Positions 43,873 to 48,956 of a stretch of 64,000 nt of DNA are shown in pieces. The DNA lies in the IMG/VR virus record IMGVR_UViG_3300037258_000282, positions 32,001-96,000 of that record, one strand, 5' to 3'. The position numbers were made by a program, and so were the translations under genes. Source of the stretch: a virus. Numbering within the stretch: position 1 is the first letter of the stretch; each line of letters begins with the position of its first letter. The notes below the pieces were generated by a model. The model saw only the letters and a program-made list of their open reading frames with translations, did not search any database and was not told the DNA's origin.

Positions 43873-43901
43873 ACTATATCACTAAGAGGTCGCGGTGTCA
43901 A
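43873..43901 (-). promoter_or_regulatory. sigma70-like promoter for gp47-46
   Basis: TTGACA-17-TATAGT. Confidence 0.65.
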
Positions 43902-44403
43902 CCTTAGTCTTCTTCTTGATCTTGCTCTTTTCCATCGTGCTCTCAAACGATCTTATCACCTCTTCATGAGATAAATTTCTAGACACTTCTCCAGAATTTA
44001 CCATGTCATTCAGCAAGGTAGTCTCGAAGTATTTATGCTTGACGTAGTTCTGCTTCTTCTCCTTCGAGATCCTCCTGATATACGCGTTCCAGGCGATCTT
44101 AGTAAAGTATGCGAACGGATTGTTAGTCTTATCTGGGTTAAAGTTATCGACCGCCGCGATGCAGTCTAAGATTCCATCTCCGACGAGATCGTAGGTGTAT
44201 CCCGCGAAGTTTCCCTTCTTAGATAAATTCGCACAGATGAGCATTATCGCCCTACCTATGTAGTCAGGAACGATGGGCCTAGACTTCTCTGTCGCGTCGG
44301 CCTCAGCGATCATCTTCCGGTATTTCACCATCGCGTCGTAGAGATCGCGATTATTGATGTAGTTTCTAGTCTTCTTCTTGACCTGAGTCTTGATCTGCTG
44401 CAA
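43882..44403 (-). CDS. 55: late sigma factor gp55
   Basis: NYINN, NFAGYTY, NPFAYFTKIAWNAYIRRISKEK. Confidence 0.92.
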   Translation of the reverse strand: MQQIKTQVKKKTRNYINNRDLYDAMVKYRKMIAEADATEKSRPIVPDYIGRAIMLICANLSKKGNFAGYTYDLVGDGILDCIAAVDNFNPDKTNNPFAYFTKIAWNAYIRRISKEKKQNYVKHKYFETTLLNDMVNSGEVSRNLSHEEVIRSFESTMEKSKIKKKTKVDTATS

Positions 44404-44503
44404 TAGTTAACCCTCTCTTAAAAAAAGAAATACTTTATCCCACTTATACGTAGTAGTGTGATGAATTTGTCACAGTTTTTTCCAAAAAGTCAAAGTTTTG
44501 CTA

Positions 44504-44532
44504 TTGACAAATCTGAGGTTTGACGGTATAAT
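44504..44532 (+). promoter_or_regulatory. perfect-consensus sigma70 promoter on the plus strand
   Basis: TTGACA (44504-09), 17 nt, TATAAT (44527-32). Confidence 0.85.
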
Positions 44533-44537
44533 CGTCT

Positions 44538-44780
44538 CTTACTACAGAGAGACAAACGACGAATTACCACTGAGCCGAGGACGCCGAAGGCGGACTCACG
44601 GAGGGCGACTCCGCCCGACGTCGACTGAACCACTCTCACTGAGACCACTGCGACTACCTTACGATCAACGTCAGCCAAGATGTGGGCTCTTCTGTAAAGA
44701 GCCCCTAGCGGGGCCACTGGCGGATCCATTGAACACTGGAGGGCAGGCCCTCCAGGACGCCTTGCGGCGTCATACCTGAG
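44538..44780 (+). ncRNA. candidate structured non-coding RNA or origin transcript, family unknown
   Basis: GC-rich intergenic region with at least five hairpins directly downstream of a consensus promoter; no credible ORF. Confidence 0.5.
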
Positions 44781-44791
44781 ATCTTCTAGAA

Positions 44792-46243
44792 TCATATCGA
44801 GATATTATAGGTCTTAAATGGAAATTCTTCTGAAGCGTAGATCTTAAGTCTCTCGATCATGTGAAGGATGGTAAAATTCTTATGAGACTTCCACGATAGA
44901 TCGTCGGCGACGTCGTAGAGCTTCGCGTGACTCTTGGTATCGTGAAGCCTCAGCATCCTACCGATAGACTGAAGATTCTTGATCTTTCCCTTAGAAGGAG
45001 ACGCAAATATCACGTTGTGAAGCTTCTTAATATTAGTACCCGTCGAGAAAGTTCCATCAGACGCTACTATGATCGCGTCGTCTTCTGTCTCGATTATCTT
45101 ACGAATCTCATCTCTATCTAATCCATCTACCTCTCCGGATATATAGTAGACGTTCCTGTCACTACCTACTTCGTCTCGTATCATGTCATACAAGACCTTT
45201 CCATGCTTCTCCACGAAATGAAACATCACGAGAGTATTTCCCTTGAGTGATATAGCTAGATTCCTGATAAAGCAGTTTCTCTCTCTACACCTCACGAGAT
45301 GATCCATCTCCTCTGGATACTTCATCTTGAAGCAGGATTTTCTAACGTCATCTGAGTACTGAAGCACCAAGACCTTTATCTGAAGCTTAGATATCTTATC
45401 GTCATCCATAAGCTTCTTGGAGGTAGTCACTCGATAGGTAGGTCCAAATAGACCGTTTAGAACCATCTCATTACACTTGGTCCCATCAAGCGTTCCAGTA
45501 AAGCCGTACCTATACTTGACTTTAGTGCACTTCTCCATGATCCCAGTTATAGACTTAGCTTTCGCGAGATGAGCCTCATCGCCAACTACGCAAGAGAACT
45601 GATCGAACCACTCCTGCGGCATCTGAAATATACTCTGCCAGGTCGACACTATCACGTCACGATCAGTACTCTTATCGGCTCCAGCCATTATCTTATGACA
45701 GTAGTCCTCAGGAGCCCCATACTCAGTAAAATCTGACTCCATCTGATGCACGAGTTGAGTCGTCGGAACTATTATCAGCTTTCTTCCAGATACGTATCGA
45801 CATATGAGATATATCATCATCGACTTTCCAGATGCGGTTGGAGAGACGTAGAGCTCGCGCCTCTTCCTCACCGCCCTGACGAAAGTAGAGAACTGATAGT
45901 CGCGTAGCTCAAACTTCTCTGGAATCTTCAGCGTCTTGATGAAGTCCGCCGCCTCCTTTCCTGAGAATTGATCTTCAGTAAAGTCGGAAGACTTGTCGAA
46001 CTGATACCCACTCGACTTACAGAACTCTCCTATGGAATCTGCTAGCCCAGCGTATATCACGCACGTCATGGGGTTGAACAGGCGTATGCGCCCGTCCCAG
46101 ATTCCCCTCTTGTACAGGGGGGTGAACTTGTACCCCGGCACCATGAAGGAGAACGCGTCGCGAAGCTCGAATGCTGTAGATGGCTCGCAGTATATCTTCA
46201 AGTAGACCTCGTTGATCTTTACTATAGATACTACTTCTGTCAA
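44792..46243 (-). CDS. uvsW: UvsW helicase
   Basis: SPTASGKS, GDEAH, GFTGT, QSIGRMLR; probable TTG start at 46243. Confidence 0.93.
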   Translation of the reverse strand: MTEVVSIVKINEVYLKIYCEPSTAFELRDAFSFMVPGYKFTPLYKRGIWDGRIRLFNPMTCVIYAGLADSIGEFCKSSGYQFDKSSDFTEDQFSGKEAADFIKTLKIPEKFELRDYQFSTFVRAVRKRRELYVSPTASGKSMMIYLICRYVSGRKLIIVPTTQLVHQMESDFTEYGAPEDYCHKIMAGADKSTDRDVIVSTWQSIFQMPQEWFDQFSCVVGDEAHLAKAKSITGIMEKCTKVKYRYGFTGTLDGTKCNEMVLNGLFGPTYRVTTSKKLMDDDKISKLQIKVLVLQYSDDVRKSCFKMKYPEEMDHLVRCRERNCFIRNLAISLKGNTLVMFHFVEKHGKVLYDMIRDEVGSDRNVYYISGEVDGLDRDEIRKIIETEDDAIIVASDGTFSTGTNIKKLHNVIFASPSKGKIKNLQSIGRMLRLHDTKSHAKLYDVADDLSWKSHKNFTILHMIERLKIYASEEFPFKTYNISI

Positions 46244-46244
46244 C

Positions 46245-46436
46245 TCATTCCTTCCACGTAAACTTATATGGCAACTCGCTGGGTCCAACCGCCGTGTTGT
46301 ACTTCTCGCAGTACTTATTTCTGCATCTCTTATAATATAAGTGAATCATCCTCGAATAGTCTATCTCGTGAGAGATCTTATAACTCGTGTTGCACGTTGG
46401 GCAATTAGACTCCCGCGCGAAATTTTTCATATTCAA
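46245..46436 (-). CDS. small Zn-ribbon-like hypothetical protein
   Basis: CPTC...CRNKYC. Confidence 0.4.
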   Translation of the reverse strand: MNMKNFARESNCPTCNTSYKISHEIDYSRMIHLYYKRCRNKYCEKYNTAVGPSELPYKFTWKE

Positions 46437-46839
46437 TAAAGTTCCTTATATTCCACCCGCGCTCTCTGAAGGTCTTTATTATCGAGTCGAGAGCCGAGAT
46501 CTTCTCCTGCTGAATTCCGATCTTGAATGAGAGAGCCATGATATCTGGATCAGCGTCCATATACATCGGTAGGTCCGACTTAAGTATCATACCCTTAGGA
46601 GGCAGCTTCCAACCCTTGGATAGCGTCTCCTGAGTGTGGCCCTGAGTGTAGAACTCATGCTTAGCCAGCTTCAACTCAGCGTACTCATACTCTAGAACGC
46701 GGACGCGCATCTTCTCCCCGACGTACATAGAGTAATATTTGTGATGAAGCTTAGCTATTCCCAGAGAGGACTCACCGAGGTTGGTCCTGTCTATCTCGGA
46801 GTCCTTACTCCAATTTTCCATTATGTCGTCTATAGTCAT
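46405..46839 (-). CDS. uvsY: recombination mediator UvsY
   Basis: WSKDSEID, LHHKY, RGWNIRNFIEYEKFRAG; adjacent to uvsW. Confidence 0.88.
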   Translation of the reverse strand: MTIDDIMENWSKDSEIDRTNLGESSLGIAKLHHKYYSMYVGEKMRVRVLEYEYAELKLAKHEFYTQGHTQETLSKGWKLPPKGMILKSDLPMYMDADPDIMALSFKIGIQQEKISALDSIIKTFRERGWNIRNFIEYEKFRAGV

Positions 46840-46868: not shown

Positions 46869-46897
46869 ACTCTATCATGAGTTTAGGTATATGTCAA
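46869..46897 (-). promoter_or_regulatory. sigma70-like promoter for uvsY
   Basis: TTGACA-17-TAGAGT. Confidence 0.6.
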
Positions 46898-48927: not shown

Positions 48928-48956
48928 ATTTTATAACATCTATTAGTTGTTGTCAA
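48928..48956 (-). promoter_or_regulatory. sigma70-like promoter of the endonuclease gene
   Basis: TTGACA-17-TAAAAT immediately after the gp23 terminator. Confidence 0.65.

Follow-up and report, generated by a model that had tools for sequence, protein, structure and literature searches.

A conserved antisense σ70-type promoter at the uvsW–gp55 junction of T4-like phages, with a putative structured leader in one lineage

A 64,000-nucleotide (nt) window of a T4-like virus, bases 32001–96000 of the 152.6-kb IMG/VR record IMGVR_UViG_3300037258_000282 (49.7% G+C, ~91% complete), contains a σ70-type promoter sequence, here named P_anti, that lies between the genes for the helicase UvsW and the late sigma factor gp55 and is oriented antisense to every neighbouring gene. 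Comparison with related genomes indicates that many T4-like relatives keep such a backward-pointing promoter just upstream of gp55, with P_anti as the copy of this phage, and that the branch keeping it includes cyanophage-type phages as well as uncultured relatives. In the phage studied here, P_anti is followed by a 236-nt, G+C-rich, U-poor and hairpin-dense block (44540–44775, + strand; coordinates are those of the window unless given as genome positions), which is the predicted leader of the P_anti transcript and is probably a non-coding, strongly structured singleton of putative function. The comparison points to the antisense promoter as the conserved part of this arrangement and to the hairpin block as its lineage-specific part, a distinction missed by the original prediction made for this DNA.

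P_anti (44504–44532, + strand) is composed of the hexamers TTGACA (44504–44509) and TATAAT (44527–44532), separated by a 17-nt spacer. It scores 12/12, and its spacing falls within the 16–18 bp of a σ70 (host, early) promoter. As originally predicted, it points against the coding direction and is the sole perfect TTGACA-17-TATAAT on either strand of the window, where shuffled sequences lead to an expectation of 0.03; the whole genome contains two such matches. Immediately 5′ of P_anti lies an A+T-rich, UP-element-like tract of 40 nt (44464–44503, + strand, 28% G+C), and a short palindrome, GTCTCT ... AGAGAC (44534–44553), is positioned at the predicted transcription start (~44539–44541). These features are consistent with P_anti being a working promoter for the host RNA polymerase early in infection. 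The + strand downstream of P_anti has neither an open reading frame (ORF) led by a Shine-Dalgarno sequence nor a U-tract terminator, in line with the original prediction, and its next terminator-like site is at 46798; read-through antisense to uvsW, which had also been proposed, is therefore to be expected. The orientation of P_anti fits that of a promoter for a cis-antisense RNA, for which the overlap of the transcript with uvsW is a prediction.

To define the distribution of the promoter, 190 nt around the gp55 start were scored on the antisense strand in 32 distinct related loci. An antisense σ70 promoter scoring at least 10/12 is present in 24 of the 32, the score being at least 11 in 14 and a perfect 12 in six, while control windows of the same loci equal those scores in just 0–4% of cases. 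The promoter was found in the cultured cyanophages P-HM1, S-CAM4, S-SKS1 and S-RIM2. Examined separately, all seven of the closest relatives have it as well. In six of these seven, the uvsW–gp55 spacer is 20–66 nt long and holds almost nothing but the antisense promoter; in the relative with the 20-nt gap (L047), the −35 element lies inside gp55. The seventh, L035, has a gap of 159 nt. In an alignment of 23 sequences of the site, −35 positions T11, T12 and A14 and −10 positions T34, A35 and T39 are invariant, and −35 TTGAC and −10 TA---T as a whole are invariant or nearly so, while the spacer varies. The hexamers and their spacing are thus selectively conserved over the spacer sequence, with scores enriched over control windows. 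T2 and an Acinetobacter T4-like phage, in which the gene order is different, have no such antisense promoter. In the literature searched, we came across no account of a conserved host-type promoter lying antisense at the uvsW/gp55 junction in T4 relatives of the cyanophage type, nor any report of antisense transcription at this locus in cyanophages; the accessible part of the published P-HM2 RNA-seq study (PMC5082946) reports no phage antisense data.

The surroundings of the start site differ among relatives. Several have, at the position equivalent to that of the palindrome of this phage, an unrelated short palindrome, such as CACTAGTG, CACAGCTGTG or CAACTG-TGT-CAGTTG. Most relatives have a GTGTC-like motif right 3′ of the antisense −10 element and a short palindrome at the start site, with a purine-rich run coming next (e.g. 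L007, L015, L045 and L046); the GTGTC-like motif is missing from this window and from L035, and at some loci it can be read, in reverse complement, as the −35 element of a promoter in the gp55 direction. In Methylophilales phage Melnitz (L041:2456–2551), a 31-aa antisense coding sequence (CDS) is annotated across the gp55 start, probably a mis-call at a divergent promoter region.

The G+C-rich stretch noted behind the promoter in the original prediction extends over 236 nt and has a G+C content of 59.7% (A59 C75 G66 T36), compared with 49.7% for the genome; the DNA downstream of P_anti is the most G+C-rich of its neighbourhood. The + strand RNA would be slightly C-rich (skew −0.06), with few G-runs. 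Furthermore, A exceeds T on the + strand of the block (59 to 36), yet in the flanks it is the − strand that is gene-sense; owing to this bias, the ‘sense-like’ strand of the block is opposite to that of the flanking genes.

All of the stems listed in the original prediction are present on the + strand. Specifically, a cgcc-gaa-ggcg hairpin (44582–44592) is followed by mutually exclusive stems formed by cggag/ctccg (44599–44603/44609–44613) or gggcg/cgccc (44603–44607/44612–44616), to which our analysis adds a longer alternative (44589–44597/44607–44615). Further downstream, an 8-bp gggctctt/aagagccc hairpin (44684–44704) overlaps a 5-bp gcccc/ggggc hairpin (44701–44714); in the minimum-energy fold, the 5′ arm of the former has a different partner, the 5′ end of the transcript (~44543–44549). 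The block closes with two perfect, abutting hairpins, ctggaggg(c)/(g)ccctccag of 8–9 bp (44736–44755) and gacgcc/ggcgtc of 6 bp (44756–44771), the latter positioned 20 nt from the uvsW stop and having, when read on the − strand, a GCAA (GNRA) loop. Neither strand has a U-tract at these two hairpins, the sequence after them being AUACCUGA on the + strand and UGUUCAAU on the − strand, and a search of 44404–44791 for intrinsic terminators (hairpin plus U-tract) found none on either strand.

The block folds more than expected by chance. Its fold z-score is −3.95 on the + strand and −2.80 on the − strand (100 shuffles), and the corresponding values for the 262-nt + strand transcript and its complement are −3.38 and −2.08. 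In 120 control windows of the genome, the mean z-score is −0.54 (standard deviation (sd) 1.05) and the minimum, within the tRNA cluster, is −3.26; the block is thus more foldable than any sampled window, and more so on the promoter strand. The + strand of the block also carries five CACTG motifs between 44568 and 44738 (starting at 44568, 44637, 44646, 44715 and 44734), three of which read CCACTG. This is the only cluster of at least four CACTG within 200 nt in the genome; some 5-mer occurs five times in 3.3% of shuffled blocks (p ~0.03), which makes the signal marginal.

Both strands of the block are open. On the − strand, a 101-aa ORF (44490–44795), overlooked in the original prediction, extends across the block; its start codon and the uvsW stop overlap as ATGA, its last 14 codons cross P_anti, and a gene caller reports it. 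On the + strand, the frame is open for 93 codons and has no start codon after the predicted transcription start. The 101-aa ORF has no homologue among 5.8 billion clustered proteins and the + strand ORF has none among 1.84 billion representatives, and neither matches a Pfam or PHROG family. The codon scores of the two ORFs are −0.14 and −0.16, respectively, compared with 0.31 ± 0.11 in 100-codon windows of phage genes; the G+C content at third codon positions (GC3) of the 101-aa ORF is 0.50, compared with 0.58 in phage genes; and AlphaFold (AF2, single-sequence) models the 101-aa product with a predicted local distance difference test (pLDDT) score of 40. Because homologues are lacking, codon scores are non-genic and pLDDT is low, we treat the block as non-coding, which is likely and agrees with the original prediction; the ATGA junction is the single feature in favour of the 101-aa ORF, which is probably not a gene.

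In 23 marine relatives, cultured cyanophages among them, the position between uvsW and gp55 is occupied by a phrog_471 (‘methylamine utilization’) gene. The proteins of this slot (L002–L032 and L040–L044) are 130–280 aa long, are often encoded in ATGA coupling to uvsW, and share an N-terminal YRILKLxNGE motif and a C-terminal DWSxDPxDYL motif. A phrog_471 profile search of the present genome gave no significant match (best E 0.29, at another site), and the slot gene is absent from the closest relatives too. The possibility that the 101-aa ORF is a diverged phrog_471 copy was rejected, the hhalign probability against the slot family being 0.07%.

The uvsW–gp55 gap is 388 nt in this phage, compared with 20–159 nt in its seven closest relatives, and the comparison suggests a lineage-specific insertion of the block, with the P_anti start site on one side and the uvsW stop on the other. 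No homologue of the region was detected by blastn in 50,697 phage records or by blastn and nhmmer in 33 related loci; the search against the phage's own genome returned only the self match, and that against plasmids a single chance 25-mer. Scans of IMG/VR, metagenome contigs and GTDB genomes for the hairpin patterns gave no match, the patterns requiring exact stems with free loops, so that diverged relatives would escape them. The Infernal/Rfam check suggested with the original prediction was run with the Rfam 15 covariance models at E up to 10 and assigned the block to no known family, giving only a chance match to an S15 leader (13 bits, E = 6), and ARAGORN detected no tRNA or transfer-messenger RNA (tmRNA) in the block even at relaxed score.

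Several candidate identities of the block were tried and rejected. The ACCA/CCACTG repeats, spaced 69–78 nt apart, might suggest tRNA-like units, but these form no cloverleaf, and ARAGORN is empty. A CsrA-type GGA sponge is not indicated by six GGA against ~4.6 expected, most of them within stems. As a mimic of a CRISPR repeat, GGATCCATTGAAC is only loosely like the ends of type I-C repeats, and no Rfam CRISPR-DR model matches.

The genes near P_anti are almost all on the − strand, including both flanks. The uvsW gene (44792–46288) encodes a protein with ~49% identity to cyanophage UvsW, and UvsW_N and helicase Pfam domains are found in the products of the syntenic uvsW genes of relatives. The gp55 gene (43882–44403) has a TTG start at 44403 and encodes a 173-aa form; the source gene call starts at an internal ATG and gives 149 aa. 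We prefer the TTG, since relatives align from residue 2–14 of the 173-aa form. The gene order uvsY-uvsW-gp55-gp47-gp46 is kept across relatives, although the phage is without a close one: the closest gp55 in any collection is only 61% identical.

The other early promoters of this phage have the form TTGACA-17-TAnnnT, often with TG. They share TTGACA, 13 nt, gTGa and TAtagT (an extended −10 element), as at 43873–43901, 46869–46897 and 48928–48956 (all − strand). Among these, the promoter before uvsY (46869–46897, TTGACA-17-TAGAGT with TG, 10/12) is convergent with P_anti at a distance of 2.4 kb, while that at the end of gp55 (43873–43901, TTGACA-17-TATAGT with TG, 11/12) would restart transcription for gp47–gp46. 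The early promoter at 48956 stands directly 3′ of a hairpin and T-run, forming a terminator-promoter cassette that presumably resembles the PeSL elements of T4-type phages. For gp55 itself, the uvsW–gp55 intergenic region offers a weak 8/12 candidate as the best in the gp55 direction (TTGACT-18-CAAATT with TG, −35 at 44493, − strand), located in the A+T-rich tract, and contains no exact match to the TATAAATA late-promoter motif. Transcription of gp55 thus appears to rely mostly on read-through out of the uvsY–uvsW unit. That read-through must cross a perfect promoter firing the opposite way to reach gp55.

Our best reading, held tentatively and at slightly under even probability, is that P_anti directs, early in infection, an antisense RNA with a structured leader, which counteracts uvsY–uvsW read-through into gp55 and extends into uvsW on the opposite strand. 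The P_anti transcript would begin with a compact multi-hairpin leader and, as no terminator follows, continue into uvsW. Early in infection, strong firing of P_anti would collide with and occlude transcription from the uvsY promoter (46897) towards gp55, and the P_anti RNA would be complementary to uvsW mRNA in its 3′ part. The result would be that UvsW and the late sigma factor gp55, the latter having no good promoter of its own, are limited or delayed. The hairpin leader could stabilise the antisense RNA, or could be released as a stable fragment of ~230 nt. What the sequence analysis establishes is the promoter with its conservation, the missing coding signal, an unusual foldability that is greater on the promoter strand, and the missing terminator; we infer the production, the length and the function of this RNA. 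By analogy with T4, where origin R-loops are removed by a UvsW that is produced late (PMC3016281), holding back UvsW early would make biological sense.

Several observations weigh against this reading. The block is a singleton, and a good z-score alone is no proof of a functional RNA. Its strong stems are all perfect Watson-Crick pairs and hence fold on both strands, the one GNRA tetraloop being present only on the − strand. Since relatives do without the block, it may be a passenger. In addition, many marine relatives have a good gp55-direction promoter back-to-back with the antisense promoter, so that the gating logic would differ there, and where a divergent promoter is symmetric, its antisense half can arise with no function attached to it.

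Other functions can be considered for the transcript and for the hairpins. The block could be a free-standing, trans-acting phage small RNA (sRNA) of ~230 nt, made in bulk, ended or trimmed at the 44736–44771 hairpins and acting on a target of the host or the phage, for instance by sponging or by serving as a protein decoy, with the overlap with uvsW being incidental. A perfect promoter with an UP-like tract, a fold z-score beyond those of tRNA-cluster windows and stronger on the + strand, tandem terminal hairpins that could protect a 3′ end, and CACTG motifs confined to the + strand are all as such an RNA would have them; moreover, T4 has no characterised trans-acting sRNA (PMC3014915), so that RNAs of this kind could have been overlooked. 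Nevertheless, we consider an sRNA unlikely: the block lacks a U-tract terminator, matches no Rfam family and has neither a second copy nor a relative in any of the collections, the CACTG clustering is marginal, relatives have the same promoter without such an RNA behind it, and a crude RNAduplex search against 269 phage mRNA start regions gave energies no better than those of the reversed control. Alternatively, the hairpins could act on the − strand as the 3′ untranslated end of uvsW, that is, as a terminator-like or nuclease-blocking insulator between uvsY–uvsW and gp55 and a non-coding meeting zone for converging polymerases, with the promoter as a separate conserved neighbour. The − strand is the coding direction and certainly transcribed, it also folds well (z −2.1 to −2.8), and the first hairpin past the uvsW stop, with its GCAA loop, is followed by an 8-bp G+C hairpin and UGUUCAAU; in L035, the nearest of the relatives with a longer gap, uvsW is directly followed by a small hairpin and a T-run. 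Yet folding is weaker than on the + strand, no hairpin has a U-tract as in the clear terminators of this phage (e.g. 47477–47460), ~250 nt far exceeds what a terminator needs, and six of the seven closest relatives have just 20–66 nt between uvsW and gp55 and no hairpin block. We accordingly regard an insulator as distinctly improbable.

The block might also have no role as RNA. It would then be a functionless remnant of inserted foreign DNA, such as a decayed gene or a host palindromic intergenic element, and its place behind a conserved promoter would be a coincidence. The block was found in this phage alone, its composition is unlike that of the flanks, relatives do without it, and the probable host is G+C-rich: the host is probably an alphaproteobacterium, since the phage encodes an alpha-type (permuted, two-piece) tmRNA (genome 135355–135642, − strand, outside the window; RF01849, 82.5 bits, tag ANDNFACEARLAA). 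No source was found in phages, plasmids, GTDB genomes or metagenomes, however, the last two being covered by exact-pattern scans only, and a z-score of −3.9 is rarely reached by random or decayed DNA; a remnant is a long shot in our estimate. Still fainter is the prospect that the 101-aa ORF encodes a real orphan protein, translationally coupled to uvsW and filling the phrog_471 slot. In its favour, the frame is open over the whole block and was predicted by a gene caller, the ATGA junction is of the type seen between uvsW and phrog_471 in L002, L004, L011, L014 and L016, and variable slots of T4-like phages commonly hold orphan genes. Against it, the database, pLDDT and hhalign results given above are joined by a codon score more than 4 sd under that of phage genes and by the lower GC3; the opposite strand is open for 93 codons too, as G+C-rich non-coding DNA would be, and the ORF would have to cross a conserved promoter. 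The original prediction had offered a further explanation, that the promoter primes DNA replication through an R-loop. Such an R-loop would persist in the downstream DNA, as at T4 oriF/oriG or the early-promoter origin oriE, and would later be removed by UvsW, encoded next door. A strong, conserved promoter that has no gene to serve and adjoins uvsW invites this idea, and in T4 oriE depends on an early promoter, origins tend towards late-transcribed regions and UvsW unwinds origin R-loops (PMC3016281). But the DNA from +1 to +120 is 59% G+C, compared with 50% for the genome, and contains no A+T-rich unwinding element; the same 120 nt are at or above the locus-average G+C content in 14 of 17 relatives, again with no A+T-rich tract. 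The RNA is slightly C-rich rather than G-rich, the flanking genes, both on the − strand, provide no transcription strand switch, and cumulative GC skew has its extremes at genome 15 kb and 89 kb and falls smoothly across the site of P_anti at 76.5 kb; a skew shift or strand switch near the origin is true of several, not all, T4 origins. An R-loop primer origin is therefore not supported and is very improbable. Of the original interpretation, the promoter, the structured and most likely non-coding stretch and the expected antisense read-through are supported, and the R-loop origin is not.

A broader proposal treats the antisense promoter as a family-wide control point that couples replication and late timing. 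The transcript would have two effects, priming or marking of an origin next to uvsW and restraint of UvsW and gp55 until host-type transcription fades, with the G+C-rich leader of this phage acting as a long-lived hybrid or a stable RNA. This is highly speculative, and we assign it a very low probability. If true, it would give cyanophage-type T4 relatives a defined, testable element for origins and for the early-to-late switch.

Additional observations concern other parts of the genomes. The phage has 26 tRNA genes, with sites at genome 8210–16351, 31644–31918, 134385 and 143446. Between uvsY and uvsW lies a 63-aa Cys-rich ORF (CxxC ... CxxxxC; 46245–46436, − strand), and the same slot holds small genes of ~60 aa in the relative L047 and in S-SKS1. 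In Prochlorococcus phage P-HM1, a full-length manA RNA motif (RF01745, 186 bits; L040:823–1010, + strand) is located just 3′ of gp23 and overlaps an annotated ‘hypothetical protein’ CDS (788–964).

T4-like phages have very few candidate small RNAs (PMC3014915), to which the block would be an addition should it prove to be a stable RNA. Control by antisense RNA or by convergent-promoter interference is familiar from phages; the new part is a conserved antisense promoter at the uvsW/gp55 junction. Its key bases are invariant from marine cyanophages to a probable alphaproteobacterial phage, which offers a handle on the timing of the late sigma factor, and P-HM2, S-RIM2 and S-CAM4 are among the cultured phages in which this question can be addressed.

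By analogy, the P_anti system would work most like lambda OOP RNA or the convergent-promoter interference of coliphage 186. In the case of OOP, a strong host-type promoter beyond the 3′ end of a gene likewise fires backwards and produces a non-coding RNA that runs against the main early transcript and is complementary to the gene at its 3′ end; OOP RNA was once proposed as a replication primer. It differs in being 77 nt long, with an intrinsic terminator and immediate overlap, whereas here there is no terminator, a structured, non-overlapping leader of 236 nt would come first, and there is no sequence relation. In coliphage 186, pR and pL present a strong promoter facing a unit that must read through, and occlusion and polymerase collision act without a protein factor; pR and pL are separated by tens of bp and act as a switch between lysis and lysogeny, whereas here 2.4 kb lies between the facing promoters (46897 and 44504), the T4-like phage is lytic, and interference is predicted.

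To our knowledge, cyanophage-type T4 relatives do not have the MotA/AsiA middle-mode system of T4. The T4 origins oriF, oriG and oriE (PMC3016281) resemble P_anti in having a promoter transcript with no obvious coding role and in lying near uvsW/uvsY, and oriE uses an early promoter; oriF and oriG need a MotA-dependent middle promoter and an A+T-rich unwinding element, whereas the DNA downstream of P_anti is G+C-rich and hairpin-forming and has no skew or strand-switch signal. CfrI of the T4-like cyanophage S-PM2 (PMC2984593, PMC5931967) is located elsewhere, at psbA and a homing-endonuclease gene with which it is co-expressed, has no sequence similarity to the P_anti region, and has been demonstrated experimentally, whereas the P_anti RNA is predicted. 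As a non-coding antisense RNA of ~225 nt that opposes neighbouring genes in the same broad phage group, CfrI appears to be the closest system within T4-like phages (PMC2984593).

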